Assembly: GCA_964505415.1 (NCBI GenBank)
Contig: CAZDHW010000009.1
Coordinates: forward strand, 1,102 to 65,101
Length of the DNA: 64,000 bases
Direction: 5' to 3'
Source: an uncultured bacterium
GTDB lineage: Bacteria > Hydrothermota > Tepidihabitantia > Tepidihabitantales > DTDR01
Made by a program: the position numbers and the translations under genes. Positions 21,198-40,256 of the stretch are shown here, piece by piece. A model generated the notes under the pieces. The model saw only the letters and a program-made list of their open reading frames with translations. It did no database searches and was not told where the DNA came from. Within the stretch, counting starts at the first letter, position 1; every line of letters begins with the position of its first letter.

Positions 21198-21450
21198 CTA
21201 TAAAAAATAATAAAAAAATATTTTTTTTCAATACTACCAAAAAACCCTGTCTCAATTTTTTAAGTTATTGATATTTTATAACTTATAAAATTTTTTGATT
21301 AGTTTTTATAAACTGTCGCATCACCCTTTCTTTTTTCTTCTGTTTTTCCTTCTTTCACTTTTATCTAAATCTTTTATTTTCAATAACTTATTTTATTTAA
21401 AAATTATTAAAATGGCATAGGTTTTTAATTATTAATCTAATAAGGGTGCT

Positions 21451-22824
21451 ATGGCTATTAATGGGAAATTGAATTTAAAGAGATTTCTTATTTGCGAAAG
21501 CCTTTTTATTTCTGCTGGTTTGATGACTATGGGATTATTGTTAAGTAAATTTTTAGGTTTTTTAAGAGAAATTCTTATTGCTAAGGTCTTTGGCGTTTCT
21601 TATTTATGTGATGCCTATTTGGTAGCGATTCTTTTTCCAATTTCCATAATGGGAGCTGTAAGCCAGTCAATGGGGGTTTCTTTAATTCCTTTATTCTCTA
21701 AAAAGGATTTTTCTAAATACCATTTATCACTTTTTATTATTTCTTTATTCTCTTTATTTTTCTCTTTTTTAGTTTTTCTTTTTCCGCAATTAGTAATCAA
21801 TGTTATTGGTCAAGGATTTCCGATTACAGTAAAAGAGCAAGCAAAGATTCTTTTGAGAAATATGGCACCAGCAGTATTTTTTATTGGCATTTCCGGATTT
21901 TTGAATGCCTTCTCCTATGTAAATAAAAATTATTTCTTTCCAGCGCTCTCGGGAATTTTATATAATAGCGGTCTAATTTTGGGAATAGTTTATCTTTACA
22001 AACTATTTTCTCTTTCCGGATTGGCTTTTTCGGTTAATCTGGCTTCTTTTCTTTATATTTTACTTCCTTTAACTTTCTTTTTAAAAAGAGAAAAAGCCAT
22101 AAGAAATTTAAATATTGCCAAAGAAGAAGCCTTATATTTTTTGAAATTTTTATTTTTAAGTTTTCTTCCCTATCTTTTGGTAAGTTCGGTTTCCCAAATC
22201 AATGTGGCAATTGACCGAGCGATTGCTTCTTTCTTGGAAGAAGGTAGTATTTCCGCACTCAATTTTGCTTACAAAATTATTGAGTTGCCTTTAGGTATTT
22301 TTGGCTTTGCCTTTGCTACGGTCTTAATGCCCTATTTTTCCGAAAAGTTTTATAACGGTGAAAAAGAACAGATGATTAAGCAGGCCAACAATTTCCTTTT
22401 CTTTTTATCTTTAATTATTTTGCCGATAACCTTGGCTTTTATTTTGTTAAATGAAGAGATAATAAGAATTGTCTATTTTCGTGGTGCCTTCAACGAAAAA
22501 GCTTTAATAATGACTAAAGAAGCTCTTAGCTTTTATTCCTTAGGTTTATTGGCTTATTGTGCTAACTTAATTCTTATCCGCTTGTTCTGGTCAATGGGAG
22601 AGATAAAATTGCCAATAATTATCAGTACCATTGCGGTATTATTAAATCTTATTTTAGACCTAATTTTGGCAAAATTCCTTTCTTATAAAGGCTTGGCATT
22701 AGCAACTTCTTTAAGTGGTATTTTCCGTTTTTTACTTTTTGCTTTTTGCCTTTCTTATTATTTTCAATTCCGGCTAAGATTAGTAAATTGGAAAGAAATT
22801 TTTAATGGTAAATATGATGGTTAA
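21451..22824 (+). CDS. MurJ/MviN-family (MOP superfamily) lipid-linked oligosaccharide flippase
   Basis: N-terminal LGFLREILIAKVFGVSYLCDAYLVAILFP matches the MurJ signature (GFaRDa.iAr.FGag..tDAFfvAfklP). 14 TM. Confidence 0.65.
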   Translation: MAINGKLNLKRFLICESLFISAGLMTMGLLLSKFLGFLREILIAKVFGVSYLCDAYLVAILFPISIMGAVSQSMGVSLIPLFSKKDFSKYHLSLFIISLFSLFFSFLVFLFPQLVINVIGQGFPITVKEQAKILLRNMAPAVFFIGISGFLNAFSYVNKNYFFPALSGILYNSGLILGIVYLYKLFSLSGLAFSVNLASFLYILLPLTFFLKREKAIRNLNIAKEEALYFLKFLFLSFLPYLLVSSVSQINVAIDRAIASFLEEGSISALNFAYKIIELPLGIFGFAFATVLMPYFSEKFYNGEKEQMIKQANNFLFFLSLIILPITLAFILLNEEIIRIVYFRGAFNEKALIMTKEALSFYSLGLLAYCANLILIRLFWSMGEIKLPIIISTIAVLLNLILDLILAKFLSYKGLALATSLSGIFRFLLFAFCLSYYFQFRLRLVNWKEIFNGKYDG

Positions 22825-24142
22825 AAGAAATGCCCTCAATTTCTTTTTGATTATCTTCTTTTTCTTTATTTCCTTTTTATTTTTCTTTATTACCCAAAAA
22901 TATAACTTCCAAATTTCTTTACTTATCTTTCTTTTGCCTTTCTTTTTACTCTTTATCTTTTTATACCCAGAAATCGGCTTAAATTTCATTTTAAACGAAC
23001 CCCTTCTTTATTTTATCTTACCCATTTTGCCAATTGCTGAAGGTTTTAGAAGAGCATCATTCACCCTCTTTATCTTTTTCCTTTTATTAATTGCTTTTAT
23101 CTACCAGATAGTGAAAAATCCAAAGGTTATTCACCATTTTATTTCTCAACTTAAAAAACCCCTATTTATCTTACTGGCGATAATTGGTCTCTGTCTTTTT
23201 ATCAGCGTAAGTAGATTGCCTTTAGCTTTTTTGGAATACGGCTATGTAAAATTCTTTTCTTTTCTTTTGCTTGCCTTTTTGCCTTCTTTGGCACTTCTCT
23301 TTTTAGGCAACGAAGAAAAAAGATTAAAAAGATTTATTTTCGCTTTTGCCTTTTTTACTTTCCTCTTTTTTGTTTATGCCAATTTTTTGATTATGAAAGA
23401 AGGAATTGAAAATTTTTTGGAAAAAGAAATTATTCCTTATCGTTTAGGCTTTTCTTTAAGTTGCGTTGTCTTTGGTCGCTGGGCAGGAATTGGTGTTTTA
23501 TTAGCTTTTCTTTTATTTATCACTACCAGAAACAAACTTGTTAAAATAATTGTCCTTCTTTTACTTCCGGTTCTTTTATATCTTTTACTCTTATCTGCAA
23601 CCCGGGGAGCAATTTTGGCTTTGGCAATTACCCTTTTTACTTTCTTCTTTTTGAGATTGAAGAATTTTAAAGAAAAGATTGCCCTTATCCTTCTCTTTAT
23701 CTTTCTTTTCTTTATCTTCTATTCTTTAATCCCTTCAATTATCAGAGAACGATTAACCTATTTTGAAGATGAAAGTGCTCTTAATCGTTTAGAATTTATT
23801 GGCCTGGCATTTCAAAACTTTTTCTCTTCGCCATTATTAGGCAAAGGTTTAGGGACTTTTCCTTATTATAATTACCATTCGCTCTATCCCCACAATATCT
23901 TTGCCGAATTTGCTTGTGAGACCGGTTTCTTAGGTCTTATTCCTTTTTTACTTTTTATCTTCTTTGCTTTTAAAGAGATGTTTAAAAGATTAAAAGTAAA
24001 AGAAATTACTTCCCTCTTCCCGGCTTTTCTTTTTCTTTATCTTTTTGTCTCCAGTCAATTTTCTTTTGATATTGGTAATAATTCTCTTTTATTTTTTGCT
24101 GGTATTTTTTTGAGTTTAAAGGAAGAAAAAAATGAAAAATAG
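22805..24142 (+). CDS. O-antigen ligase/polymerase (Wzy_C) family membrane protein
   Basis: Polytopic. Large periplasmic loop region with SATRGAILALAI-type motif characteristic of Wzy_C/O-antigen ligase. Confidence 0.55.
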   Translation: MVNMMVKRNALNFFLIIFFFFISFLFFFITQKYNFQISLLIFLLPFFLLFIFLYPEIGLNFILNEPLLYFILPILPIAEGFRRASFTLFIFFLLLIAFIYQIVKNPKVIHHFISQLKKPLFILLAIIGLCLFISVSRLPLAFLEYGYVKFFSFLLLAFLPSLALLFLGNEEKRLKRFIFAFAFFTFLFFVYANFLIMKEGIENFLEKEIIPYRLGFSLSCVVFGRWAGIGVLLAFLLFITTRNKLVKIIVLLLLPVLLYLLLLSATRGAILALAITLFTFFFLRLKNFKEKIALILLFIFLFFIFYSLIPSIIRERLTYFEDESALNRLEFIGLAFQNFFSSPLLGKGLGTFPYYNYHSLYPHNIFAEFACETGFLGLIPFLLFIFFAFKEMFKRLKVKEITSLFPAFLFLYLFVSSQFSFDIGNNSLLFFAGIFLSLKEEKNEK

Positions 24143-26303: not shown

Positions 26304-28159
26304 TGCAAAAGAAAATTATTCATATTCTTGGAGCTTCAAAGTTTGGTGGTATTGTTCAGTATTTGGCTTTTCTTATTGAGAGACAATTGAAAGATAATTA
26401 CCAAGTAGCAATTTTAACGGAAGACGAAAAGATAAAAAGTTATTTTCAAAAGCATTTTCCGCAAGTGAAAATAGTGACTACCAAAAAGGTTTATAAAAGA
26501 GAGATTTCGCCTTTCTATGACCTTTGGGCACTTTTAAGAACTATTAAGATTTTAAAAGGTTATTCGATTGTTCATACCCACACCTCTAAGGGTGGCTTTA
26601 TTGGCCGGCTGGCTGCCAAAATCTGTCGAATTCCATTGATCATCCATACTGCCCACGGGTTTGCCTTCCATGAGTTCTCCTCTAAAAAAGCAACCCTTTT
26701 CTATTCTTTTTTAGAAAGATTAGCTAGTTATTTTTGTGACAAAATTATCCTTCTTAATAAAAAGGATTACCAATTGGCTAAAAAATTTAAAATTGGCAAC
26801 GAAAAGAAATTGGCACTCATTTATAACGGCATTGATTACCAAAAAATTGAAAAAGAGAAGCCTGATTTTTCTATCCGGGAAAAATTGGGTTTAAAAGCCA
26901 AAGATTTCCTTATCACTTTTGTCGGTCGTTTATCACCACAAAAAAACCCCGAAATTTTAATTCGGGCAATGAAAGAACTGGTGAAAGAAAATAATAATAA
27001 AAAGATTTGTCTGTTACTAATTGGTGAAGACATGGGAGAAAAAGAAAAATTGTTGAGATTGATAAAGGAATTTCAGTTAACTAATAATGTCCACTTTTTA
27101 GACTTTGTGAAAAATCCCATTCCCCTTCTAAAAGCCAGTGATTGCTTTGTGCTTCCTTCCCTCTGGGAGGGATTATCAATCGCGCTGTTAGAAGCCATGG
27201 CCTCTTCCTTACCAGTAATTGCCTCCAATATCAAAGGGAATAACGAAATAATTACTGATGGAATAAATGGCTTCCTCTTTTTGCCCAATAATGAAAAGGA
27301 TTTAAAAGAAAAGATAATGCTTTTATTAAATAATGAAGAACTGCGACTAAAAATGGGAAAAGAGGGGAAAGAAACCATTATAAAAAGATTTTCTAAAGAA
27401 AGATTTCAAGAAGAAACAATGAAAATTTATAATTTTCGAAAAGAAAATAAAGAAGCTAACAAAAGAGAGAAAAATATTTCTCCATACTTAAATTCTTTTG
27501 CTAAAAGGACTTTTGACATTTTCTTTTCCCTCTTTTTATTAATCTTAACTTTACCACTTTTTATTCCTGTACTGCTAATCCAATTGTTTTATTTTAAAAA
27601 TAAACTCTTTTTCACTCAGGAACGAAGAGGAAGAAATTTGAAGATATTTAAAGTTTATAAATTCCGAACAATGAAAATTAATGCCGAAAAATTGAAAAGA
27701 GAAGACGGCTCTTCTCTTTATCTTAAAAACGACCCGCGGGTAACAAAATTTGGAAGATTTTTAAGAGAATTTGGTTTAGACGAATTGCCTCAAATATTTA
27801 ATGTTTTAAAAGGAGAAATGAGTATTGTGGGGCCGAGACCGGATGAAGTCTTACCTTTAGAGCTTTATAAAGATAAAACAAAATTTTTCGCTAAACCTGG
27901 TTTAACCAGTTTATCAATTATTAATGGCCGAAATAATTTGCCTTTAAATTTGAGAAACGAAATTGAAGGTTTTTATTGTCAAAAAGCATCGTTTATTTTG
28001 GATTTAAAAATTATTTTAAAAACAATTTTAATAATTTTAAAAAGAGAAGGAATTTATAATAAGCAGGAGGTGTGTGATGAGGAGCGCCTATTTATTAACT
28101 TTAAAGGGAGAGGGGTTTATGAAAAAATTAAATATTCTACCGGAAAATCTCGGAGCTAA
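26300..28159 (+). CDS. GT4 glycosyltransferase fused to C-terminal small phosphoglycosyl transferase (Bac_transf / PglC-WbaP-like) domain
   Basis: N-terminal GT4 motifs (GRLSPQKN, LPSLWEGLSIALLEAM). C-terminal re-entrant helix FDIFFSLFLLILTLPLFIPV plus KFRTM, DELPQ and SIVGPRP motifs of polyprenyl-phosphate sugar-1-P transferases. Confidence 0.75.
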   Translation: MMQKKIIHILGASKFGGIVQYLAFLIERQLKDNYQVAILTEDEKIKSYFQKHFPQVKIVTTKKVYKREISPFYDLWALLRTIKILKGYSIVHTHTSKGGFIGRLAAKICRIPLIIHTAHGFAFHEFSSKKATLFYSFLERLASYFCDKIILLNKKDYQLAKKFKIGNEKKLALIYNGIDYQKIEKEKPDFSIREKLGLKAKDFLITFVGRLSPQKNPEILIRAMKELVKENNNKKICLLLIGEDMGEKEKLLRLIKEFQLTNNVHFLDFVKNPIPLLKASDCFVLPSLWEGLSIALLEAMASSLPVIASNIKGNNEIITDGINGFLFLPNNEKDLKEKIMLLLNNEELRLKMGKEGKETIIKRFSKERFQEETMKIYNFRKENKEANKREKNISPYLNSFAKRTFDIFFSLFLLILTLPLFIPVLLIQLFYFKNKLFFTQERRGRNLKIFKVYKFRTMKINAEKLKREDGSSLYLKNDPRVTKFGRFLREFGLDELPQIFNVLKGEMSIVGPRPDEVLPLELYKDKTKFFAKPGLTSLSIINGRNNLPLNLRNEIEGFYCQKASFILDLKIILKTILIILKREGIYNKQEVCDEERLFINFKGRGVYEKIKYSTGKSRS

Positions 28160-28868
28160 ATCGGATATCTATACCGATTATCTCAATTTAGATATCCTGC
28201 GAATAATTGAAGCCGGCGGAATTGTAAAAGTTTTTTACGAAGATAAGAATAAAGAAATTATCGGTTTAGCCACTGCTGAATTTAATGAAAATCTCTTTAT
28301 TATTCCTTACCTCTTTGCTCCTAATCTGTCTTTAAAAATCAAACTGCTAAGCGAAATTATTAATGAAGGCAATTGCTCAAATATCTTAATCAAAATTTCT
28401 AATAACGACGAAAAGTTTATTAACTACCTTAAAGAAAATAATTTCAAATTGATAAACAGCATTATCCTCTTTCTTGGTAATCAAGAAAATCTGAAACCGG
28501 AAATTATTACTACTTTTGAAGATACTTTAAAATCGGAAAAAATGGAAATTACCACCAGCAATCTTTCACCAATAATTTACTACCATTTTCTAATGAAAGA
28601 TGGTAAATGTATTGGTGTCCTTAATGCTCAAAAAGTAGCCAAAGATTTTCCGATTATAAAAATTAACACCATTTATATCGACGAGAAATTTCGAAAAAGA
28701 AATTGCGGAAGTCTTCTTTTATCATCTTTTTTAAAATGTCTTTTAAAAGAGAAAAATTATTATGTAATTAGTGAAGTTCCTATGGGCAATCTCCCGGCAA
28801 TCAGACTTTTTTCTAAATTTAATTTTGGAATAATTGGCGCTTTTAAAATTTTAATGAAAGGAAAATAA
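28119..28868 (+). CDS. Hypothetical protein, possible GNAT-fold N-acetyltransferase
   Basis: C-terminal IYIDEKFRKRNCGSLLLSSFL...AIRLFSKFNF loosely resembles GNAT motif A/B. ORF track N-terminus (28074) overlaps the previous gene; internal MKKLN start used. Confidence 0.3.
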   Translation: MKKLNILPENLGAKSDIYTDYLNLDILRIIEAGGIVKVFYEDKNKEIIGLATAEFNENLFIIPYLFAPNLSLKIKLLSEIINEGNCSNILIKISNNDEKFINYLKENNFKLINSIILFLGNQENLKPEIITTFEDTLKSEKMEITTSNLSPIIYYHFLMKDGKCIGVLNAQKVAKDFPIIKINTIYIDEKFRKRNCGSLLLSSFLKCLLKEKNYYVISEVPMGNLPAIRLFSKFNFGIIGAFKILMKGK

Positions 28869-28874
28869 GTAACG

Positions 28875-30023
28875 ATGAAGAGTTTTAATTTTATTCCTTT
28901 TGCTCGACCTCATATTACTGAAGAAGAAGTGAACGCCGTTATGGAAACCTTAAAATCCGGTTGGTTAACCACGGGAAAAAGAACAAGGGAATTTGAAGAG
29001 GAATTTAAAAAATATATCGGTGCGCAATATGCCATCGCGGTGAATTCTTGCACCAGTGGACTTTTCTTAGTTTTAAAAGCTTTAGGAATAAAAGAAGGAG
29101 ACGAAGTAATCATTCCCACTTGGACATTCTGTGCTACGGCTAATGTGGTTATCCATTGCGGTGCCATCCCAGTTTTTACTGATGTGGCTTATGATTATCT
29201 TTTGCCACCCGAGGAGATCGAGAAGAAAATCACTAAAAAAACTAAAGCGATTATTCCTGTTCATTTTGCCGGAAAGAGTTGCGATATGAAAAAAATAAAA
29301 GAAATTGCTGAGAAATATCACCTTTATGTAATTGAAGACGCGGCTCACGCCTGCGGTACTATTTATCAAGGCAAAAAAGTTGGGAAAGAATCTTTAGCAT
29401 GCGTCTTTTCTTTTTATCCAACGAAAAACATCACTACCGGTGAAGGGGGTATGGTTGTTACCAATAATAAAGAGTTAGCAGAAAAGATAAGAATGATGGC
29501 TCTCCACGGTTTAACGCTTAATGCTTATGACCGCTATCAAAAAAATGGCAGTTGGTATTACCAAGTTGTTTATCCGGGGTATAAATGTAATATGACCGAT
29601 ATTCAAGCGAGTATCGGTCTTTGCCAATTAAGAAAGATCGAGAAGTTGATTAAAAGAAGACAAGAGATTATCAATTATTACCAAGAAAATCTCAAATATC
29701 TGCCAGATTTAATTTTACCGGAAACAGAAATTGTTGATCAAAGAGTAAGCTGGCACCTTTATGTAATAAGAATTTCAAAAACCGCAAAAATGGGGCGAGA
29801 TGCTTTAATTGATTTTTTAAGAGAAAAAAATATTGGGACATCGGTACATTTCATTCCTCTTCATCTTCATCCCTATTATCAAAAAACTTATAATTTAAAT
29901 CCTAAAGATTTTCCCGTAGCAAACACTCTCTTTTCTTCTTGTCTTTCTTTACCCCTCTATCCCGATTTAACTAAAGAAGAGCAAGATTTTATTATTTATT
30001 CTTTAAAGGAGGCATTATGTTAA
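28875..30023 (+). CDS. DegT/DnrJ/EryC1/StrS-family PLP-dependent sugar aminotransferase
   Basis: FIPFARPHITEEEVNAVMETLKSGWLTTG N-terminus. PLP lysine region FSFYPTKNITTGEGG. Confidence 0.85.
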   Translation: MKSFNFIPFARPHITEEEVNAVMETLKSGWLTTGKRTREFEEEFKKYIGAQYAIAVNSCTSGLFLVLKALGIKEGDEVIIPTWTFCATANVVIHCGAIPVFTDVAYDYLLPPEEIEKKITKKTKAIIPVHFAGKSCDMKKIKEIAEKYHLYVIEDAAHACGTIYQGKKVGKESLACVFSFYPTKNITTGEGGMVVTNNKELAEKIRMMALHGLTLNAYDRYQKNGSWYYQVVYPGYKCNMTDIQASIGLCQLRKIEKLIKRRQEIINYYQENLKYLPDLILPETEIVDQRVSWHLYVIRISKTAKMGRDALIDFLREKNIGTSVHFIPLHLHPYYQKTYNLNPKDFPVANTLFSSCLSLPLYPDLTKEEQDFIIYSLKEALC

Positions 30024-31465
30024 AAAAGTTGAATTTTAGCATTAGTTATCGATTATTGGCTGATGTTTTAATTTTAACATTTTCTTATTCTTTTGTGAAC
30101 TTCTTAACTAACCATCGTCTGCCCAATTTTCTTTCTCTTTATTTTCTTGTCACTTTTTGCTTATTTATCTTTTCTCTTTGCGGTTTCTATACTTACGGAA
30201 GAACCTATCGGGGAAGATACAAATTCCTTTTAATCCTTTTTGCCAATTCGTTAGCTTTCTTTTTATTTTATTACTTATCCCCCCTCTTTTTATTCCCTCA
30301 ACAATTACGGACACTTTTTTTTACTTACCTTTTAGCAACTTTTCTCTTGTCTTTTGCTCGTCTTTTTCTTTTATTATCAAACCATTTTACTTATTTAGAG
30401 AAAAAAAGAGCCCGGGTTATTAAAAAACCAATTGAAAGGATTTTGGTAATTGGGGGTGCCGGTTATATCGGTTCGGTGCTAGTAAGAAAATTATTAAAAT
30501 TAGGTTACAAAGTAAGAATCTTAGACAACTTTCTTTACGGAAAAGAGAGCATAAAAGAACTTATGAAAAACAAATCTTTTGAAGTAGTGGAAGGCGATTT
30601 TCGTCACATTAATATTTTAACCGAAGCCTTGGAAAATTGCGATGCCTTAATCCATTTAGGAGCCATTGTTGGTGACTCTGCTTGTGCGCTTTCCGAAAAG
30701 TTAACTATTGAAACTAATCTTCTGGCTACTAAATTTATTATTCAGGTAGCAAAAAGTAAAAATTGCCAGCGGTTTATTTTTGCTTCTACTTGTTCGGTCT
30801 ACGGTGCCAGCGATAACGAATATCTTACCGAAGAAAGCAAAACTTTTCCGGTTTCACTTTATGCCAAAACTAAATTGGATTCGGAAAAAATCCTCCTCAA
30901 AGAAGGAAAAGAGCTGGTTACTACTATTTTAAGATTTGCTACTGTTTACGGACCTTCCTATCGGGAAAGATACGATTTGGTGGTTAATCTTTTATCTTTA
31001 AAAGCAGTAAAAGAAAAGAAAATAACGGTTTACGGTGGTGAACAATGGCGACCTTTCATCCACATTGACGATCTTTGTGAAGGAATTATTAAGGTTCTCT
31101 TAGCAAAAGAAGAACTGGTAAGAGATCAGATTTTTAATTTAGGAGATACTAAAGAAAATTACCAATTAAAAGAGATTGGGGAAATTATCCAAAACATTGT
31201 TCCCGATGCGGAATTAATTATCCTACCGGAGACAAACGATAGAAGAAATTATCGGGTCTCCTTTGAAAAGATTAAAAAAGTTTTATCTTTTACTTGTCAA
31301 AAAAAAGTAAGAGATGGCGTCATTGAAATGATTGAAAGGATAAAACAAAATGGTAAAGGTTATTTTTCACCCGACTTTTTCCAATGTGTTTCTAATTATG
31401 AGAGAATTAAAAATTGTAAAAAAGAAAGTTATTGGCTGGAATTAGTTAAAGAGGAGGTCTTATGA
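30017..31465 (+). CDS. Membrane-anchored NAD-dependent nucleotide-sugar epimerase/dehydratase (extended SDR)
   Basis: Four N-terminal TM helices, then GGAGYIGS Rossmann motif and YAKTK (YxxxK) catalytic motif. TM-anchored dehydratase architecture resembles PglF/WbpM-type enzymes. Confidence 0.7.
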   Translation: MLKKLNFSISYRLLADVLILTFSYSFVNFLTNHRLPNFLSLYFLVTFCLFIFSLCGFYTYGRTYRGRYKFLLILFANSLAFFLFYYLSPLFLFPQQLRTLFFTYLLATFLLSFARLFLLLSNHFTYLEKKRARVIKKPIERILVIGGAGYIGSVLVRKLLKLGYKVRILDNFLYGKESIKELMKNKSFEVVEGDFRHINILTEALENCDALIHLGAIVGDSACALSEKLTIETNLLATKFIIQVAKSKNCQRFIFASTCSVYGASDNEYLTEESKTFPVSLYAKTKLDSEKILLKEGKELVTTILRFATVYGPSYRERYDLVVNLLSLKAVKEKKITVYGGEQWRPFIHIDDLCEGIIKVLLAKEELVRDQIFNLGDTKENYQLKEIGEIIQNIVPDAELIILPETNDRRNYRVSFEKIKKVLSFTCQKKVRDGVIEMIERIKQNGKGYFSPDFFQCVSNYERIKNCKKESYWLELVKEEVL

Positions 31466-31875
31466 GATGGGTTATTTTTCTCGGAATCTTAACTTTAGCA
31501 ATTTTCAAATTTTTAATTGCGCAACCAACGAATAAAGAAATGCCAATAAAAGCCCATATTTGGGGAGAAGTAAAAAATCCTGGCTCTTATTATCTTTCTT
31601 ATACCGGTGATATTTTAGAACTGATTTCGCAAGCCGGCGGACCCACACCTAATGCCGATTTATCAAAAATCACTTTAATTGTCGCCAAAGAGAAAAAAAG
31701 GATAGGTCTTAATCTTAATAAAATGATTAAAAAAGGTGAAATCTTGCTCCTTTCTAACGGTGATGTTGTGATCATTCCTCGTTCAAAATTAGCTACTTTA
31801 AAAGAAGCTATACCATTCATAACTACTTTAGCAGTATTTGTTAATCTTTATTTAACTTATATAACCAGGAGGTGA
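31462..31875 (+). CDS. Polysaccharide export protein (Wza-like Poly_export/SLBB domain)
   Basis: Signal/TM N-terminus. GEVKNPGSY...GDIL and DVVIIP motifs of Poly_export/SLBB. Confidence 0.55.
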   Translation: MRWVIFLGILTLAIFKFLIAQPTNKEMPIKAHIWGEVKNPGSYYLSYTGDILELISQAGGPTPNADLSKITLIVAKEKKRIGLNLNKMIKKGEILLLSNGDVVIIPRSKLATLKEAIPFITTLAVFVNLYLTYITRR

Positions 31876-31878
31876 AAA

Positions 31879-33969: not shown

Positions 33970-36359
33970 TGAACAAAAAAATTCTTATTGTTGATGATGA
34001 TACCCTTTTTTCCCAATCATTAAAAGAAATCCTTGCTTCTCGAGGTTACGAAGTAGCTACCGCTAATACTGCTCAAGAAGCTTTAACAAAAATAAATGAA
34101 GATTATGAAGTTTGGATAGTTGATTTAAAATTACCGGATAAAGATGGCTTAGAATTGGTTGAAGAAATAAAAACTATCAAATTTCCACCACCAATAATTA
34201 TTATTTTAACTGGCTTTTCCTCCTTGCCGGCAGCCAAAAAAGCAATCACTCTTAAAGCCGATGCTTATTTAGAAAAGCCTATTGATCCGGATAGACTTTT
34301 TCTCACCCTTTACCAATTACTGAAAGAAAAGGAAGAAGCATGTAATCGTTTTAATTATTTAAAAAAAATTTTAGAAAAGGCAAGTCTTCCCGCAGCCCTT
34401 ATTGTTGACAGCAAAATAATTTTTTACAATTACTCTTTCCCGATAGAAAAGTGGCAACCTTTTGATCTTACTAATAGGAATGATTTAAAAATTGATAACC
34501 AACTTTATCGGTGCGTAGCCATTCCGGTTGAAGAAAAAGTTTCGTTAATTTTTTTAATCAATCTTTCTGATAAAGAAAGGCTAATCGAAGAATACCAAAC
34601 AATTTTTTCTTATCTTCCCTTTAAGATTTATTTAGTGAAAGATAACTATCAAGTTGTTGGTCAAAACAAATTCTGTTACCAGATTTTTAAAAATTATTCT
34701 TATCCTTGTTCCTTTTTTGGTGAAACCTGTTTACTTCTTCAGGCGAAAACTGCTAAATCAGCTGTAAAAGCCTTAAAAATAATTGAGGGGAAACATTGGG
34801 AAGAAAACTGCCTGCCTTTAAAAAATAACCAATTCCTTCTCTTTTTTATTGACCGAAGCGAAGAAGTTGAAAAAAACCAGAAATTATATCTGGCAACCGA
34901 AGAATGGGAAAAAACTTTTAATGCCATTAATGATATGATCGTAATTATCGACAAAAATTTTAACATTCTGAAAGTTAACAAAGCAACTTATCAATTTTTT
35001 AATAATAAAAAATTAATCGGCAAAAAATGCCATGAAATCTTTCACCAAACAAAAGAACCAATTATTAATTGCCCTTTTGTAAAAACCCTAAGGACAAAAA
35101 CTTCTTTTACTGAAGAAATAGAGATAAATGATCAAACATTTATCATTTCCGTTTCCCCTATTTTTGATGAAAAAGGCGAAGTGGAAAGATGTGTGCATGT
35201 CGCCCGTAACATTACAAATTTAAAGATTATTGAAGAAAATCTCAGAGAAAAAACTAAAGAATTAACTATTCTAAACCAAGAACTTCAAAATTCCCAAAAG
35301 GAATTGATAAAAACCGCAGAAAGATTAGCTAAAACGAATGAAGAATTGATTAAACTATCAAATGCTAAAACCGAATTTGTCCAAATTCTTTCTCACGAAA
35401 TGCGAACACCGCTCACCGCTATTTTAGAAGGTAGTAATCTCCTTTACGAAAATTGCCAAGAAGCCGATGCCAAAAAACTTCTTCAGTTAATCAAGAATAA
35501 TGCTCAAAAATTATTTGAATTAATTAACGATTTATTAGATTTAACTAAAATAGAAAGTGGCCGAATTGAATTATTACCGCAAGCAGTAGATATTAACAAA
35601 ATATTTTCGCAATTAATCAATAATCTCCAAGTTATCGCTAAAGAAAAAGGGGTAAAAATTATTAAAGAAATTGATGAAAAAATTCCTTTGGCTTTTGTTG
35701 ATGAAAATGCTTTTTATCGAATAATAGTCAACTTATTATCTAACGCTGTCAAATATAGCAAAGAAAATGGCGAAATTCGGATCCGAGCTTTTCCCCATTT
35801 TCAAGAAAAGAAAATTATTATTTCGATTAAGGATAATGGTATCGGCATTCCTAAAAGCGAACAATACAAAGTATTTCAGAAATTTGCTCAAATAGTTCAT
35901 CCTGGTTATCAGCCAATTAAGGGAACCGGGTTGGGATTAGCACTGTGTAAAGAATTGGTCGAAAAAAGCGGCGGTTCGATTTGGTTTGAGAGTGAAGAAC
36001 ATAAAGGGACCACTTTTTATTTCACAATTCCTATTTACGAAGAGGAAGAAGATTTTCAATATTATAAGCAGCAGCTTTTAAAAAAAGCAAAAGAACTGAA
36101 TTTAGATTTGGGTATTTTTTTAATTAAAAAAGATGGGGAGGATTTTAAGAAAGAGGAAAAAGAAATGATCAAAAATTTAGTTAAGGATTTTATGAGTGAA
36201 ACGGCTGAAATAAAAAATTTTTATAAAAAAATAGTGGTAATGGTAATTGGCAAAGAAAAGGAACTAAAAGAGAAATTTAAGAAATTTAATAGATTAATTA
36301 GGCAGGCAATTAAAGGAATCATTATTGAAGAACAGTATGAAAAAGATTTTAATAATTGA
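33969..36359 (+). CDS. Hybrid signalling protein: N-terminal receiver (REC) + PAS + histidine kinase
   Basis: REC: ILIVDDD...WIVDLKLPDKDG. PAS region. H-box LSHEMRTPLTAIL. HATPase NLLSNAVKYS, DNGIGIP and GTGLGLALC. About 120 aa C-terminal extension of unknown function. Confidence 0.8.
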   Translation: MNKKILIVDDDTLFSQSLKEILASRGYEVATANTAQEALTKINEDYEVWIVDLKLPDKDGLELVEEIKTIKFPPPIIIILTGFSSLPAAKKAITLKADAYLEKPIDPDRLFLTLYQLLKEKEEACNRFNYLKKILEKASLPAALIVDSKIIFYNYSFPIEKWQPFDLTNRNDLKIDNQLYRCVAIPVEEKVSLIFLINLSDKERLIEEYQTIFSYLPFKIYLVKDNYQVVGQNKFCYQIFKNYSYPCSFFGETCLLLQAKTAKSAVKALKIIEGKHWEENCLPLKNNQFLLFFIDRSEEVEKNQKLYLATEEWEKTFNAINDMIVIIDKNFNILKVNKATYQFFNNKKLIGKKCHEIFHQTKEPIINCPFVKTLRTKTSFTEEIEINDQTFIISVSPIFDEKGEVERCVHVARNITNLKIIEENLREKTKELTILNQELQNSQKELIKTAERLAKTNEELIKLSNAKTEFVQILSHEMRTPLTAILEGSNLLYENCQEADAKKLLQLIKNNAQKLFELINDLLDLTKIESGRIELLPQAVDINKIFSQLINNLQVIAKEKGVKIIKEIDEKIPLAFVDENAFYRIIVNLLSNAVKYSKENGEIRIRAFPHFQEKKIIISIKDNGIGIPKSEQYKVFQKFAQIVHPGYQPIKGTGLGLALCKELVEKSGGSIWFESEEHKGTTFYFTIPIYEEEEDFQYYKQQLLKKAKELNLDLGIFLIKKDGEDFKKEEKEMIKNLVKDFMSETAEIKNFYKKIVVMVIGKEKELKEKFKKFNRLIRQAIKGIIIEEQYEKDFNN

Positions 36360-36717
36360 AGACGAAGAAGCTATTCGTTTTATTTTAGAAAAAAGGTTAA
36401 GCGATGCCGGCTACTTTGTTATTTCGGCAGAAGATGGAATTGAAGGGTTAAATAAACTGAGAAAAGAAAATCCTGATTTAATAGTTTTGGATTTAATGCT
36501 GCCGGGTTTAGACGGTTACCAAATATGTAGTTTAATAAAAAGAGATCGGCGATATGCTCATATCCCGGTACTTATTCTTACCGCCCGCATTCAACAGAAG
36601 GACTACGAAATGGCTATGGCGGTGGGGGCTGATGCTTTTTTAACCAAACCTTTTGAAAGTCAAGTGCTTTTAAGCAAAATTGAAGAACTTTTAAAAAATA
36701 ATAAAAAGGAGGAATAA
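36325..36717 (+). CDS. Response regulator, receiver domain only
   Basis: KILIIEDEE...LIVLDLMLPGLDG...K. 130 aa with no output domain. 35-bp overlap with the hybrid kinase gene. Confidence 0.8.
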   Translation: MKNSMKKILIIEDEEAIRFILEKRLSDAGYFVISAEDGIEGLNKLRKENPDLIVLDLMLPGLDGYQICSLIKRDRRYAHIPVLILTARIQQKDYEMAMAVGADAFLTKPFESQVLLSKIEELLKNNKKEE

Positions 36718-36720
36718 ACT

Positions 36721-38400
36721 ATGCGGGACAAAAAAATTATTTACCAAGTATTGCAGGAATTTGGTCTGTCCCAAAAAGATGTAAAAAAATTTGAAGAAGA
36801 AAGTCAACAAAGTAACATTTCTTTAGAAGAGTTATTAATCAATAGAAAGATAATTAACAAAGAGGATTTCTATTTAGCTCTTTCCCGAAGATTGGGTGTA
36901 CCTTATTTAGATATTTCTGGTTACATGGTTGACAAAGATGTTTTGACTTTAATTCCAGAAGAAGCCTGCCGAAGTTTAAATGTTTTTCCTTTATTTAAAA
37001 TTGGTGATACCTTAACCGTAGCCATGGCCAATCCCACTGATGTGGATATCATTGATGAATTAAGATTGAAAACCGGCTTAGAAATTACCCCAGTTTTAGC
37101 AAGCGAAGAAGATATCAAAAATGCTCTCGATAAATATTACAAATCAAGCTCCCAGACTCAAATTGAAGAAATCAGTCAAATAGCCAGTGAGGAAGTAACC
37201 CCAGTGGAAATCACTGACGAAATTAAAAAGTTAGAAGAAGAAGCTTCCCAAGAACCAGTTGTTAAATTTGTAAATACCGTAATTTCTTATGCAGTAAAAA
37301 ACCGAGCTTCTGACATTCACATTGAACCGGAAGAAAATATCTTAAGGGTAAGATTAAGAATCGACGGTGTATTACATACTTTTACCGAAGTTGCTAAAAA
37401 TATGCATCCAGCGATAATTTCTCGCATTAAAATTTTAGCACGTTTAAACATCGCTGACAAATTACGACCCCAGGATGGGCAATTTCAAATGACCATTGAT
37501 AGTAAAAAAGTTGATTTCCGGGTCTCTACTTTTCCTACCTTTTGGGGAGAATGCGCGGTTTTAAGATTATTAGATAAGTCTTCAGTATTAATTGGACTCG
37601 GGGAATTAGGTTTTTCTCCGGAAAATCTTATAAAATTTAATGCTTTGATTAAAAAACCTTACGGAATCATTTTGGTAACCGGACCTACCGGCAGTGGTAA
37701 AACTACTACTTTATATTCTGCATTGGAAGCTATCCGTAGCGAAGAGAGAAATATTATTACTTTGGAAGATCCGGTTGAATATACCTTGCCATTAATCCGC
37801 CAGGTACAAATCAATCCCAAACAAGGTTTAACTTTTGCCACCGGTCTCCGCGCAGTGTTAAGGCAGGACCCCGATGTGATAATGGTCGGTGAAATCCGTG
37901 ATTTAGAAACTGCGGAGATTGCTGTTCAAGCAGCGTTAACCGGTCATTTAGTTTTTTCAACCCTTCATACTAATAATGCGGCTACCGCGGTTACCCGATT
38001 AGTAGATATTGGCGTGGAACCCTATCTTATTGCTTCTTCTTTGATCGGCGTTTTAGCTCAAAGATTGGTGAGAAAAATTTGTCCAGCTTGCAAAGAAGGT
38101 TACAAACCAAAGCCCGAAATTTTGAAATATTTAGGATTAGAAGAAAATATAGAATTATTTAAAGGTAAAGGATGTGAAGAGTGTAATAATACCGGTTATA
38201 AAGGAAGAACCGGTATTTTCGAACTGCTAATTATTGATGACACTATTAGAGAAATGATTTTAAAAAACAAAAGTGCTAACGAAATTCACCACACAGCAGT
38301 TGCCAAAGGAATGAAAACAATGCGCGACGATGGCTTTGAAAAAGTTAAAAAGGGAATAACAACTATTGAAGAAGTATTAAGAGTTACCGCTGTCTTTTAG
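36721..38400 (+). CDS. GspE/PilB-family secretion/pilus ATPase with N-terminal T2SSE_N (MshEN-like) domain
   Basis: Walker A GPTGSGKTT. Asp box LEDPVEY. Walker B MVGEIRD. His box TLHTNNA. Tetracysteine CPACK...CEECNNTGY. N-terminal T2SSE_N domain. Confidence 0.85.
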   Translation: MRDKKIIYQVLQEFGLSQKDVKKFEEESQQSNISLEELLINRKIINKEDFYLALSRRLGVPYLDISGYMVDKDVLTLIPEEACRSLNVFPLFKIGDTLTVAMANPTDVDIIDELRLKTGLEITPVLASEEDIKNALDKYYKSSSQTQIEEISQIASEEVTPVEITDEIKKLEEEASQEPVVKFVNTVISYAVKNRASDIHIEPEENILRVRLRIDGVLHTFTEVAKNMHPAIISRIKILARLNIADKLRPQDGQFQMTIDSKKVDFRVSTFPTFWGECAVLRLLDKSSVLIGLGELGFSPENLIKFNALIKKPYGIILVTGPTGSGKTTTLYSALEAIRSEERNIITLEDPVEYTLPLIRQVQINPKQGLTFATGLRAVLRQDPDVIMVGEIRDLETAEIAVQAALTGHLVFSTLHTNNAATAVTRLVDIGVEPYLIASSLIGVLAQRLVRKICPACKEGYKPKPEILKYLGLEENIELFKGKGCEECNNTGYKGRTGIFELLIIDDTIREMILKNKSANEIHHTAVAKGMKTMRDDGFEKVKKGITTIEEVLRVTAVF

Positions 38401-38404
38401 AATT

Positions 38405-39505: not shown

Positions 39506-39590
39506 AATAAATCCTCCTTTTAATTTAATCTTTAATTATAACAAAATTTTAAAAAAGTTCAAAGGATAAAAAATATTTTAAAATGATTTT

Positions 39591-40256
39591 TTAATAATCA
39601 ACTATTGCTTTTATAAGATAAAAACCTTCGGCAAAAGAAACTCCGATTTCGCTGCCCCGCATTTTGGCTTTTATAATGATTCCTTCTTCGCTTCGGGGAT
39701 GAGGAAATTTTTTTACCTCTTTTTCGTAAAATTTAAAGGCATTAATTTTTAAATCAATTTCTTTCTTAGTTAAAACTTCATAATAATTAGGAATAAATTT
39801 ATTCCAATGATACCATTCGGTGGAACCAGGAATTTCAAAGGTAAAAATTCTTTTTATGGAAGAACTGCTTAAAGGTCGACAGGCAACTGCTACGGCTTCA
39901 TAGGTTCTTCGGTGATCTTGATTCACATCATAAGGAAAATGAGTATAGACCTCTGTCGGTTGAAGAGCTTTAATAATTTTTTCAATCTTTTGAATAATGG
40001 TCAACAAGGGATAAGTATCTAATCTTTCGTCAAGAAACCTCAGAAAATAAACGTCCTTTACCCCTAAGAAGCTATTTGCCTTTTTGGCGTTGGTTTCTTG
40101 TTTTTTAAGTAACTTCTTGTCCCTCGCCGAGACGCCGTCAGTAAGAATTAAAAGGTAAAAATCTTTTTTTTGTGAATATTTGGCAATCGTACCACCCATA
40201 CCTAAAATTTCATCATCTGGGTGAGCAACTACTATCAATATTTTATCTTTTTTCAT
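39591..40256 (-). CDS. PIG-L/LmbE-family N-acetylglucosaminyl deacetylase
   Basis: ILIVVAHPDDEILGMGG zinc-binding motif and HxDH region (VNQDHRRTYEA). Confidence 0.75.
   Translation of the reverse strand: MKKDKILIVVAHPDDEILGMGGTIAKYSQKKDFYLLILTDGVSARDKKLLKKQETNAKKANSFLGVKDVYFLRFLDERLDTYPLLTIIQKIEKIIKALQPTEVYTHFPYDVNQDHRRTYEAVAVACRPLSSSSIKRIFTFEIPGSTEWYHWNKFIPNYYEVLTKKEIDLKINAFKFYEKEVKKFPHPRSEEGIIIKAKMRGSEIGVSFAEGFYLIKAIVDY

Follow-up and report, generated by a model that had tools for sequence, protein, structure and literature searches.

A polysaccharide locus ending in a hybrid sensor kinase, a response regulator and a PilB-like ATPase in an uncultured WOR-3 bacterium

Gene content and layout of the locus

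The locus described here belongs to an uncultured hot-spring bacterium of low GC content from the candidate phylum WOR-3 and lies in a window of 64,000 nt, the whole stretch of DNA that was analysed. Between positions 21451 and 38400 the ORF coordinates bear out the thirteen same-strand genes reported in an earlier note, all of them on the plus strand (Table 1). Comparison with Pfam and NCBIfam also upheld nearly all of the domain assignments made there; two call for correction, namely the MurJ-type protein, a 12-TM form, and a protein termed Wza-like, which is a 137-aa single-SLBB protein in which a domain search for PF02563 (Poly_export/PES) found no match.

Table 1. Coordinates of the locus and of associated features in the window
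Feature	Coordinates	Strand	Evidence
Divergent intergenic region, 253 nt	21198..21450	.	Upstream of first gene (ORF coordinates)
MurJ-family MOP transporter, 457 aa	21451..22824	+	PF03023, 214 bits
Wzy_C-domain polytopic membrane protein, 445 aa	22805..24142	+	PF04932, 52 bits
Tandem GT4-GT4 fusion, 723 aa	24132..26303	+	Two Glycos_transf_1 / Glyco_transf_4 stretches
GT4 + Bac_transf fusion (small monotopic phosphoglycosyl transferase, PGT), 619 aa	26300..28159	+	PF00534 192-358, PF02397 402-580
GNAT-family acetyltransferase, 249 aa as called	28119..28868	+	PF00583, 35 bits
DegT/ArnB-like PLP-dependent sugar 4-aminotransferase	28875..30023	+	PF01041, 454 bits
Membrane-anchored SDR nucleotide-sugar oxidoreductase/epimerase	30017..31465	+	PF01370 Epimerase, 155 bits, residues 142-376
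Mini SLBB protein, 137 aa	31462..31875	+	PF22461 + PF10531
Wzc-type PCP-2a co-polymerase / BY-tyrosine kinase, 696 aa	31879..33969	+	Wzz + GNVR + P-loop
Cytoplasmic hybrid sensor kinase, REC-PAS-HisKA-HATPase_c, 796 aa	33969..36359	+	Domain search
Single-domain (CheY/DivK-like) response regulator, 126-130 aa	36337..36717	+	PF00072, 99 bits
PilB-like extension ATPase, 559 aa	36721..38400	+	PF00437 T2SSE 477 bits, PF05157 MshEN/GSPII 85 bits
PIG-L deacetylase, WecD-like GNAT, formyltransferase	39591..42043	-	Profile matches; opposite strand to locus
303-aa protein, C-terminal low-molecular-weight phosphotyrosine phosphatase domain	53172..54083	-	PF01451, 100.6 bits

The first gene encodes a MurJ-type protein with approximately 12 predicted transmembrane (TM) helices and without TM13-14, which scores 227.9 against TIGR01695, under the cut-off of 235.55. 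Its alignment with the MurJ of T. africanus (5t77, 475 aa) covers residues 3-410, and the C-terminal ~70 aa are missing from the locus protein. This short form is restricted to the host genus, and the next matches are canonical MurJ proteins of 510-535 aa at 34-37% identity. The use of a MurJ-family flippase had been singled out as notable; the point stands in weaker form, the protein being a genus-restricted MurJ derivative and a candidate repeat-unit flippase. The Wzy_C protein has several predicted TM segments and weak NCBIfam matches to TIGR03097 ('O-glycosylation ligase', 44 bits) and TfpM (29 bits). The Wzy_C domain does not tell polymerases from ligases or O-oligosaccharyltransferases; the protein is probably a Wzy polymerase and may alternatively belong to either of the other classes.

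Both halves of the tandem GT4-GT4 fusion match NCBIfam GT4 families, and PglH and PglJ are among the weak matches of the GT4s of the locus. The GT4-PGT fusion (TIGR03025, 214 bits; hydrophobic segment 409-427) is the presumed initiating enzyme. The GNAT reading frame extends from a GTG at 28074, and its product is a probable sugar N-acetyltransferase. The DegT protein scores 414.5 with the PseC model of NCBIfam (cut-off 423.5) and 392 with that of ArnB, has ArnB (1mdo, 310 bits) as its best PDB match, and is closest to ArnB-type 4-aminotransferases. Four N-terminal TM helices are predicted for the SDR protein ahead of its Rossmann domain, and its best PDB match is 6vo6 at 147 bits, with UDP-GlcA decarboxylases at ~81 bits. 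The polymer would contain an amino sugar. The three genes at 39591..42043 are possible accessory sugar-modification members of the locus; the GNAT scores 77 bits with the WecD model, and the formyltransferase scores 122 with fmt (cut-off 201.5), about equal to the 118 with ArnA-N. These genes are present in L005 and L006, and L007 is without the PIG-L and formyltransferase genes.

A Poly_export/PES domain is the defining mark of OPX proteins. In the mini SLBB protein an N-terminal signal/TM segment precedes the single SLBB domain, and a hydrophobic helix forms the C-terminus. Giant multi-SLBB proteins are homologous to it through their last repeat and C-terminal helix, and it also has single-domain relatives of 135-179 aa. 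In lineage L054 the SLBB gene (52% identity) adjoins Wzc as well, and the protein is possibly a minimal Wza-like partner of Wzc. The Wzc protein itself exceeds the cut-off of TIGR01007 (143 bits against 108) and has two TM segments, Walker A, A' and B motifs and a C-terminal tyrosine cluster, YHNYYYYHYKY. The description of the locus as a complete Wzx/Wzy pathway is correct as to a Wzx/Wzy/Wzc-type amino-sugar locus with an ArnB-type DegT, but neither a full OPX with a PES domain nor Wzb was found among the 13 genes, and export of the polymer is left unexplained because the canonical OPX is missing from the locus. The 303-aa phosphatase protein encoded 15 kb away, which scores 62.7 bits with the Wzb model, under its cut-off, is a candidate Wzb-like partner of Wzc through a presumed link with the locus.

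Neighbours among the thirteen genes overlap by up to 41 nt or are separated by at most 6 nt. Near-zero spacing had been presented as a feature of the locus and proved to be a genome-wide trait; same-strand gaps have a median of -4 nt both in the locus and at the 39 same-strand pairs outside it, with a coding density of ~98% in the window, and spacing is therefore uninformative for the locus. Further co-directional runs of 9-14 genes each occur in the window, and unrelated genes also overlap. The sole non-coding gap available for a promoter of the locus is the 253-nt intergenic region, which is ~90% identical in the close relative L062. Consensus scans returned promoter-like matches (69 vs 66.9) and terminator-like matches (16 vs 14.0) at shuffled expectation, and the 253-nt region was not above chance. 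The Wzc and kinase genes overlap by 1 nt, with no intergenic room at this junction for separate signals.

The kinase, response regulator and ATPase

The hybrid kinase comprises an N-terminal REC domain, a Cys-rich region, PAS, HisKA and HATPase_c domains and a C-terminal extension of ~100 aa. Its motifs are intact (D52, the H-box SHEMRTPL and the G boxes), and prediction found no TM segments in the protein. The extension, which is degenerate and GGDEF-like, aligns with the homolog in L056, in which PF00990 scores 26 bits and the GGDEF motif is replaced. The end of the kinase gene and the start of the response regulator gene share 23 nt; this ATPase-proximal REC has intact receiver motifs and is 57-64% identical across distant lineages in tblastn comparisons.

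The catalytic motifs of the ATPase are likewise intact (GPTGSGKTT, DPDVIMVGEIRD, TGHLVFSTLHTN and the tetracysteine motif CPAC...CEEC). It passed the GspE model of NCBIfam (636.8, cut-off 630.25) and just missed the PilB model (646, cut-off 675.65). Its PDB matches to Thermus PilF (518 bits), Geobacter PilB (481) and Myxococcus PilB (467) are full-length, whereas that to Vibrio GspE (447 bits) starts only at residue 122, and its N-terminal 145 aa align with the N-domains of PilB, PilF and MshE. The c-di-GMP-binding motif taken from Wang et al. (PMC5013675) was absent from the ATPase and from all of its 120 top homologs; where Geobacter PilB has RLGSILVKNGLVTEPDLTTFLSKQ, the aligned stretch of the WOR-3 ATPase is SLEELLINRKIINKEDFYLALSRR, a degenerate form of the motif. 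No T2SSF (PilC) or prepilin motif (pilin) was found in the window, and no PilC, pilin or PilM gene within +/-25 kb. The pilB gene is often unlinked from pilC, as is the case for Thermus pilF. Members of the PilT family occur widely in WOR-3, PilT, PilD, PilQ (AMIN + Secretin) and PilO lie within 11 kb on the contig of one WOR-3 MAG, and an outgroup ATPase, 55% identical, belongs to an ordinary ATPase-T2SSF-pilin-PilMNO cluster. The full-length PilB/PilF match and the occurrence of PilT, PilQ, PilD and PilO in WOR-3 suggest that the protein, previously called a secretion-type ATPase, is better read as a type IV pilus extension motor.

The comparison with relatives proposed in the earlier note found the kinase-REC-ATPase tail conserved next to glycan genes. 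All 13 genes are kept in L062, the locus is conserved in L061 over the portion covered (from the GT4-GT4 fusion to the ATPase), and three genus-level MAGs keep the GT4-PGT fusion through the ATPase. Five WOR-3 lineages outside the genus (L054, L056, L058, L059 and L066), with ATPases 58-61% identical, keep DegT, the REC-PAS-HK kinase, the ATPase and between one and four REC-only genes, and DegT is the one glycan gene that is present upstream of the tail in each of the five. Lineage L054 (ATPase 58%) retains SDR-SLBB-Wzc in the same order, and the arrangement DegT-SDR-SLBB-Wzc-kinase-REC-ATPase therefore predates the genus; in the other four, none of the genes for Wzc, GT, PGT, Wzy and flippase lies directly upstream of the tail. 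The best-conserved pair is the ATPase-proximal REC and the ATPase, and the kinase is 31-37% identical over approximately half its length. Signalling and ATPase genes had been viewed as built into the glycan unit. They do share its co-directional, overlapping gene string, but because the tail stands outside the genus with DegT only, with or without SDR, SLBB and Wzc, the comparison shows it to be an autonomous, phylum-conserved module that does not belong intrinsically to the glycan pathway.

Proposed function and competing explanations

The reading that we prefer, with confidence slightly better than even, is that a Wzx/Wzy/Wzc-type exopolysaccharide operon shares its transcript with a pilus extension motor under phosphorelay control. 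The first ten genes (21451-33969) would provide a diderm WOR-3 thermophile with an exopolysaccharide pathway. Judging from family membership, the membrane-anchored SDR, the ArnB-like aminotransferase and the GNAT would together produce an N-acylated 4-amino sugar. The repeat unit would be started on polyprenyl phosphate by the GT4-PGT fusion and lengthened by three GT4 modules. The 12-TM MurJ-derived MOP protein would flip this unit, the Wzy_C protein would polymerise it, and Wzc with the minimal SLBB protein would control polymerisation and export. The hybrid kinase would phosphorylate the adjoining response regulator, which in its phosphorylated form would act directly on the PilB-like ATPase, with the partners PilC, PilMNOPQ, PilT and PilD presumably encoded elsewhere in the genome. 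Such phosphorelay control would stand in for regulation by c-di-GMP, which the MshEN domain has lost. As the tail is presumably co-transcribed with the polysaccharide genes in the host genus, polymer production and pilus extension would be expressed and regulated together.

The constant presence of DegT beside the tail has no account in this model and counts against it, as do the genome-wide tight spacing, the missing full OPX and Wzb genes and the pass of the GspE model beside the narrow miss of the PilB model. As four of the five non-genus lineages are without pathway genes directly upstream, the link with a full exopolysaccharide pathway may be no more than a chance feature of local gene order. 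The tail could then be an independent DegT-kinase-REC-PilB module for pilus regulation, adjacent to an upstream exopolysaccharide operon in a compact genome; read-through expression may occur, yet neither system would depend on the other. The tails of L056/L059, L058 and L066, with none of the pathway genes directly upstream, are consistent with such simple adjacency, as are the window-wide spacing, unrelated overlaps and other long gene runs. However, DegT precedes the tail in every case, L054 retains the SDR-SLBB-Wzc order, and the Wzc/kinase overlap leaves no space for separate signals in the window, and we regard adjacency without coupling as rather unlikely.

The ATPase could also be dedicated to the polysaccharide and not to pili, either as a signalling ATPase that gates synthesis, a role proposed for Myxococcus PilB, or as an energiser of export alongside Wzc and the mini SLBB protein. 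Its position as last gene of the glycan operon, the lack of PilC, pilin and PilM genes within +/-25 kb, the unexplained export and the polysaccharide roles of pilus proteins in Myxococcus (PMC5544727) and Nostoc (PMC12288463) would fit such a role. We consider it distinctly improbable, since the sequence is that of an unremarkable PilB, complete in length and in its motor motifs, the tail persists in lineages without an adjoining Wzc or SLBB gene, the PilT, PilQ, PilD and PilO proteins of WOR-3 need an extension motor, and no platform protein is present to couple the ATPase with a polysaccharide channel. Very unlikely, in our view, is that the glycan genes form a protein (pilin) O-glycosylation pathway, in which the Wzy_C protein would act as an oligosaccharyltransferase of the PglL/TfpO type, a bacillosamine-like sugar at the reducing end would come from the SDR, DegT, acetyltransferase and PGT, and the link with PilB would reflect pilin glycosylation. 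The ambiguity of Wzy_C, the weak 'O-glycosylation ligase', TfpM, PglH and PglJ matches and the constant company of DegT with the PilB module point in this direction, together with the set of TM-anchored SDR, DegT, N-acetyltransferase and small PGT, which we take to resemble pgl pathways. Yet the pgl-like matches all fall far under their cut-offs, the SDR fits Epimerase (155 bits) far above Polysacc_synt_2 of the PglF/CapD family (37 bits), and a full-length Wzc with BY-kinase and Tyr cluster, beside an SLBB export-type protein, is a hallmark of polymer export rather than of protein glycosylation.

Co-transcription of an exopolysaccharide operon with a pilus motor, as we prefer to read the locus, would be a new form of an already known coupling between pili and polysaccharides. 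PixG binds the motor PilB1 only in its phosphorylated form, in a system where a hybrid kinase and an antagonistic second REC also act (PMC11181946). Exopolysaccharide production is regulated by Myxococcus PilB (PMC5544727), minor pilin genes lie in the cyanobacterial hps Wzx/Wzy cluster, and Nostoc pilB or pilQ mutants lose polysaccharide (PMC12288463). The recurrence of the tail with DegT across the phylum suggests that the production of slime and the activity of pili are probably under common control here, as in Myxococcus and cyanobacteria.

Gene content of the polysaccharide locus

The ORF coordinates bear out the thirteen co-directional genes of the locus, which lies in a window of ~31% GC and ~98% coding density. 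The window is nearly identical to the ENA metagenome contig ERZ27245635:k141_175853 (13 mismatches in 21.7 kb), and the nearest genomes are three genus-level metagenome-assembled genomes (MAGs) labelled candidate division WOR-3, namely L005 (isolate JZ-2_201705_bins_9), L006 (isolate SKYB26) and L007, in which the ATPase that closes the locus is 86-89% identical. Further window genes encode LptF/LptG, a class A PBP, a class V FBPase and an archease, which together point to a diderm thermophile. The near-zero gene spacing pointed out in the earlier note carries no signal: locus junctions lie between a 41-nt overlap and a 6-nt gap, and their median of -4 nt is matched by the 39 same-strand junctions in the rest of the window, 85% of which are at 10 nt or less. 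Promoter and terminator consensus scans of positions 20500-39800 were left unused since their counts equaled those of shuffled controls, and Rfam and tRNA scans of the window gave no matches. Only 4 nt separate the end of the ATPase gene from that of the convergent gene for the class V FBPase, with no space for a terminator hairpin. Elsewhere in the window, an ATP:guanido phosphotransferase (McsB-like protein arginine kinase) adjoins a UVR-motif (McsA-like) protein; such pairs are best known from Firmicutes and here the pair occurs in a diderm WOR-3 genome.

Pfam and NCBIfam models largely agree with the domain list of the earlier note, apart from corrections to the Wza-like and MurJ-type proteins, and support a MurJ family protein, Wzy_C, a GT4-GT4 fusion, a fusion of GT4 with a small Bac_transf domain, GNAT, DegT, an Epimerase-family SDR, SLBB, Wzc, a REC-PAS-HisKA-HATPase_c kinase, a REC-only protein and an MshEN plus T2SSE ATPase. 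The initiating phosphoglycosyl transferase (PGT) in the GT4 fusion scores 180 bits on PF02397 (cut-off 27) and 214 bits on TIGR03025, the latter match covering the catalytic domain only. The Wzy_C protein scores 52 bits on PF04932 (cut-off 31.7), a family that also holds WaaL ligases and O-oligosaccharyltransferases. ArnB is the nearest solved relative of the DegT aminotransferase (310 bits), and four N-terminal TM helices are predicted for the SDR. Wzc combines Wzz, GNVR and P-loop regions with Walker A, A' and B motifs and the C-terminal tail YHNYYYYHYKY, and its 143 bits on TIGR01007 (cut-off 108) place it among the PCP-2a BY-kinases.

Downstream, a PIG-L deacetylase, a WecD-like GNAT (77 bits on a dTDP-4-amino-4,6-dideoxygalactose acyltransferase model) and a formyltransferase (122 bits on fmt, cut-off 201.5, and about equally 118 on ArnA-N) might serve the locus as accessory genes of 4-amino-sugar modification; the PIG-L and formyltransferase genes are missing from L007. 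The locus contains no Wzb, and the sole candidate Wzc phosphatase in the window is a 303-aa protein with 63 bits on a Wzb model. Three other assignments were rejected. The divergent hexapeptide gene is gamma-carbonic-anhydrase-like (175 bits) and not a sugar acetyltransferase, the PHP protein fits models of nucleoside bisphosphate phosphatase and RNase RNM and is not taken as a CpsB-type tyrosine phosphatase, and several XrtA-family matches suggestive of a PEP-CTERM/exosortase-type locus all fall far under cut-off in a window without an exosortase.

The protein that had been called Wza-like does have an SLBB domain and a C-terminal membrane helix, and it lacks the PES domain of OPX proteins. 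Its 137 aa comprise a signal/TM segment, one SLBB domain (residues 30-105) and a C-terminal hydrophobic helix (116-134); PF02563 (Poly_export/PES), the criterion used for defining OPX proteins (Schwabe et al., PMC9601211), is absent from it and from every other ORF of the locus. In an exhaustive profile search, residues 30-133 matched the last repeat and extreme C-terminus of giant multi-SLBB proteins, as well as a few single-domain SLBB proteins of 135-179 aa. Three of the giants (P0361-P0363; 1,800-2,300 aa) carry 19-26 tandem SLBB repeats and end in a helix that is homologous to the C-terminal one of the 137-aa protein. As a 144-aa ortholog also adjoins Wzc in the distant relative L054, this match profile suggests that the mini SLBB protein is a minimal Wzc partner that has been conserved and may correspond to D3 plus D4 of Wza; it is not a demonstrated OPX protein. 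Its single-sequence AlphaFold model had a pLDDT of 49 and was not carried into a fold search.

The sole MOP protein of the locus belongs to the MurJ family (PF03023) and not to Polysacc_synt. This 457-aa protein is homologous to the lipid II flippase MurJ across TM1-12 (E = 3e-40) and aligns to residues 3-410 only of the 475 in Thermosipho africanus MurJ (5t77). It scores 227.9 on the MurJ equivalog TIGR01695, below the cut-off of 235.55; orthologs in two NCBI MAGs nonetheless carry the name MurJ. In a multiple alignment it ends ~20 aa past TM12, whereas all 16 canonical homologs run ~70 aa further (TM13-14), so that it has 12 TM helices, as does Wzx, rather than the 14 expected of MurJ. The short form is limited to this genus, and the next matches (34-37% identity) are canonical MurJ proteins 510-535 aa long. 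At the positions of TaMurJ R24 and R255 the protein keeps R and K. Loss of cavity arginines was considered as a sign of a new substrate and rejected; the cavity residues are uninformative because the closest canonical homologs likewise lack the R52 equivalent and have K at R18. The gene overlaps the Wzy start by 20 nt at its stop, and MurJ-like orthologs share contigs with the ATPase in two of the genus-level MAGs. From these features, the MurJ-type protein is a reasonable candidate for the locus flippase.

Features of the window and of contigs from relatives (L-numbers), with positions on the respective sequence
Sequence	Position	Strand	Feature	Remark
Window	15939-18119	+	726-aa polytopic membrane protein	spermidine-synthase-like domain between TM bundles; weak C-terminal MFS match
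Window	18072-19917	-	CHASE4 sensor kinase (484 aa, 2 TM helices) and REC-only protein (135 aa)	1.5 kb upstream of locus
Window	20685-21197		hexapeptide protein	divergent
Window	21451-38400	+	locus of 13 genes	
Window	21451-22824	+	MurJ-type protein	
Window	26300-28159	+	GT4-PGT fusion	
Window	28875-30023	+	DegT aminotransferase	
Window	31462-31875	+	mini SLBB protein	
Window	31879-33969	+	Wzc	
Window	33969-36359	+	REC-PAS-HK kinase	
Window	34600-35300	+	PAS region of kinase	conserved Cys/His pattern
Window	35970-36356	+	C-terminal extension of kinase	~100 aa
Window	36337-36717	+	REC-only regulator	
Window	36721-38400	+	PilB-like ATPase	
Window	38400-38405		ends of ATPase and FBPase genes	convergent
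Window	39591-42043	-	PIG-L deacetylase, WecD-like GNAT, formyltransferase	
Window	47727-48569		PHP protein	
Window	53172-54083	-	phosphatase protein	C-terminal low-molecular-weight phosphotyrosine phosphatase domain; N-terminal half (~150 aa) unassigned
Window	58611-60180	-	McsB-like and McsA-like pair	
L054	11737-12294	-	NusG-like gene	
L057	4010-4543	-	NusG-like gene	
L058	11689-12201	-	NusG-like gene	
L059	10596-11129	-	NusG-like gene	4.6 kb before tuf
L056	1652-3871		TPR/YfiO-like protein	
L058	1920-4403		TPR/YfiO-like protein	
L059	391-2721		TPR/YfiO-like protein	
L066	2789-5227		TPR/YfiO-like protein	
L056	7850-8110		C-terminal extension of kinase	
L059	12436-13756		1.3 kb from ATPase region to PilT	no convincing ORF; low-complexity translations (LPSLLPSL...)

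Kinase, regulators and ATPase in the window and its relatives

The locus kinase is predicted to be cytoplasmic, with no TM segment, and carries an N-terminal receiver and a PAS domain; its motifs (SHEMRTPL, DNGIGI, GTGLGL; receiver D52) are intact, as are those of the REC-only protein (DLMLPGLDG ... T ... K), whose gene shares its first 23 nt with the end of the kinase gene and which scores 73 bits on the EpsW model (cut-off 200). The C-terminal extension of the kinase aligns with the extensions of its relatives, of which the one in L056 reaches Pfam's threshold for GGDEF (26 bits). In place of the GGDEF signature, L056 has YSQEN and the window FYKKI; a degenerate GGDEF domain therefore sits beside an ATPase with a degenerate c-di-GMP motif. 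The PAS region keeps the Cys/His pattern GKKC[HY]E[IL][FH]H ... C.N ... CP[FI] across all lineages, and the middle region, which is genus-specific, holds additional conserved cysteines; together they may form a metal or redox sensing site. The CHASE4 kinase and REC pair upstream of the locus, which is kept in the close-relative metagenome contig L062, might provide input to the N-terminal receiver of the locus kinase; the CHASE4 kinase is split into two calls (332 and 153 aa) in the near-identical ENA contig, suggesting a frameshift variant.

The ATPase scores 477 bits on PF00437 and has Walker A and B, Asp and His boxes and a tetracysteine, as read from the sequence. Over the full length it matches pilus extension motors best (PilF at 518 bits, PilB at 481 and 467), and the GspE match (447 bits) starts only at residue 122. 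The NCBIfam PilB and GspE models fail to discriminate for this protein, which misses the PilB equivalog TIGR02538 (646.2, cut-off 675.65) and narrowly passes the GspE equivalog TIGR02533 (636.8, cut-off 630.25). The MshEN c-di-GMP motif consists of two tandem 24-residue units, RLGxx(L/V/I)(L/V/I)xxG(L/V/I)(L/V/I)xxxxLxxxLxxQ (PMC5013675). Searches with a strict and a relaxed pattern gave no match in the first 160 residues of the window ATPase or of any of its 120 closest homologs. Geobacter PilB RLGSILVKNGLV...Q aligns with SLEELLINRKII...R of the window ATPase, with the motif changes R>S, G>E, G>K and Q>R.

The PilT family is common in WOR-3, with 70-93% identity to the PilT located 3 kb from the ATPase in the distant lineage L059, which is itself judged to be WOR-3 by the names of its PilT relatives. 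One WOR-3 MAG contig (GC 35%) encodes PilT, a prepilin peptidase (PilD), an AMIN-Secretin PilQ and PilO within 11 kb. A retraction ATPase and a secretin in WOR-3 imply some extension motor, for which the kinase-linked ATPase would be the obvious candidate.

A scan of genome contigs with the ATPase recovered the three genus-level MAGs and did not reach intermediate relatives, which came from a protein-homologue search followed by gene-context look-ups; its remaining matches were unrelated PilB/GspE loci of at most 50% identity without Wzc or kinase neighbors. In the three MAGs the genes from the GT4-PGT fusion through the ATPase are conserved together with the flanking FBPase block. A metagenome search with the GT4-PGT fusion returned two close relatives and one unrelated GT only; L062, compared over 22.7 kb of its 701 kb, conserves all 13 genes and the upstream genes at 85-100% identity.

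Second-tier ATPase homologs show 56-61% identity (717-756 bits, all others at most 663), and the context of five of them was compared. The gene order is DegT-SDR-SLBB-Wzc-HK-142aa-REC_PAS_HK-REC-REC-ATPase in L054/L055, TPR/YfiO-79aa-DegT-REC_PAS_HK-RECx4-ATPase in L056 and L059, TPR/YfiO-DegT-SDR-REC_PAS_HK-REC-ATPase in L058 and TPR/YfiO-DegT-REC_PAS_HK-REC-ATPase in L066. The kinase, regulator and ATPase tail is thus more widely conserved than the glycan body; the best-conserved pair is the ATPase-proximal REC (57-64%) and the ATPase (58%), with the kinase at 31-37% over half its length. An outgroup ATPase (55% identity) lies in an ordinary ATPase-T2SSF-pilin-PilMN-PilO cluster. Two further genes set these relatives apart. 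A convergent NusG-like gene (170-185 aa) right after the ATPase, absent from the window, may be a specialized NusG paralog of the kind controlling long polysaccharide operons. The TPR/YfiO-like protein (740-830 aa) before DegT has no equivalent in the window locus and could belong to the ancestral module, as an envelope scaffold or in a pilotin-like role.

Interpretation of the linked module

The locus joins an ordinary set of polysaccharide genes to a PilB module that is linked to a phosphorelay and conserved across the phylum. The overall interpretation of the earlier note is partly right; its complete pathway and its tail as an integral part of that pathway are not borne out. Genes 1-10 would make and export an amino-sugar-containing polymer by the Wzx/Wzy/Wzc route. 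The hybrid kinase would read a cytoplasmic cue through its PAS/Cys-rich region, while its own receiver may be fed by another kinase, and would phosphorylate the adjacent single-domain regulator; the regulator would bind PilB and modulate pilus extension, replacing c-di-GMP control. Matrix polymer and pilus motor would be co-expressed because their genes lie in one string. By analogy, the steps from kinase sensing to co-expression find support in three precedents, Synechocystis, Myxococcus and hps.

Mere adjacency of body and tail in a compact genome is an unlikely explanation that still deserves some weight. The comparison with relatives proposed in the earlier note cuts both ways: the tail is kept beside glycan genes, with DegT in every case, and yet usually no GT, PGT, Wzy, flippase or Wzc lies next to it. 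It is quite improbable that the ATPase is dedicated to polysaccharide signalling or export; the lack of T2SSF, a prepilin motif, PilC, PilM-Q, pilins and PilT in the 64-kb window speaks for this, the protein's full-length matches to extension motors against it. The Wzy_C family assignment would also accommodate a pilin O-glycosylation pathway in place of an exopolysaccharide pathway, a reading that we regard as very unlikely since Wzc and the SLBB protein speak against it.

DegT precedes the kinase in every relative, and none of the models offered here accounts well for this. We consider it quite improbable, on a par with a dedicated polysaccharide ATPase, that DegT-(SDR)-REC-PAS-HK-REC(n)-PilB is a dedicated WOR-3 unit that swapped c-di-GMP sensing for direct phospho-REC control and is mechanistically tied to amino-sugar glycan output. 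In such a unit the motor might drive or gate polymer export with Wzc and a one-SLBB channel protein in place of an OPX, or pilus extension might be coupled to glycosylation; if so, it would be a hybrid of pilus motor and polysaccharide machinery that has not been described before.

Under the preferred reading of a polysaccharide locus joined to a PilB module, an uncultured phylum hard-wires to glycan genes a sensor kinase, small regulators and the gene for a pilus motor in which the c-di-GMP motif has been lost. Should the phosphorylated regulator bind the motor, the module would provide a simple thermophile model for phosphorelay control of PilB and would help explain the joint production of biofilm matrix and pili. 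The one-SLBB protein by Wzc is a minor lead on minimal export components, as is the MurJ derivative without TM13-14 on how MOP flippases change substrate; gene content is otherwise ordinary for a polysaccharide locus.

Comparison with known systems

With the E. coli group 1 capsule/colanic acid systems (WbaP/WcaJ, Wzx, Wzy, Wza-Wzb-Wzc) the glycan body has in common its polyprenyl-phosphate PGT and GT4 transferases, a candidate MOP flippase and a Wzy_C membrane protein, as well as a Wzc of the PCP-2a type that carries a Tyr cluster and Walker A/A'/B motifs. It differs in that the PGT is small, monotopic and fused to GT4, the candidate flippase is MurJ-derived and not Wzx/Polysacc_synt, a 137-aa protein with a single SLBB domain and no PES takes the place of Wza, Wzb is missing from the locus, and kinase, REC and PilB genes are appended. 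In comparison with the lipid II flippase MurJ (T. africanus 5t77, E. coli 6cc4), the window protein is distinguished by its gene overlapping Wzy at the head of a putative glycan operon.

Myxococcus and cyanobacteria offer well-documented cases of coupling between type IV pili and secreted polysaccharide, and the locus is a variation on this theme and not a new kind of system. The window ATPase is the last gene of its putative operon and has a degenerate c-di-GMP motif, unlike the situation in Myxococcus, where pilB is not known to lie in the eps locus. The likeness to Myxococcus xanthus EPS is in a Wzx/Wzy-dependent polymer tied to PilB, with the single-domain regulator EpsW and kinases encoded with the eps genes (PMC7484181, PMC5544727) and PilB regulating exopolysaccharide production (PMC5544727).

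Synechocystis Tax1 (PixL, PixG/PixH, PilB1) resembles the tail in its REC-bearing hybrid kinase and small regulators; only phosphorylated PixG binds PilB1 and a second REC protein is antagonistic (PMC11181946). The one, two or four REC-only genes in WOR-3 recall this antagonist/phosphate-sink arrangement. In contrast to Tax1, the WOR-3 kinase is a HisKA-type PAS kinase rather than CheA-type with MCP and CheW, the RECs lack PATAN, and the genes are physically linked to pilB and glycan genes. The cyanobacterial hps (hormogonium polysaccharide) loci likewise combine a Wzx/Wzy-type cluster with type IV pilus component genes, and pilB and pilQ mutants lose the polysaccharide (PMC12288463). The pilus genes of hps are minor pilins in a different phylum, whereas the WOR-3 locus carries a motor ATPase and a two-component system.
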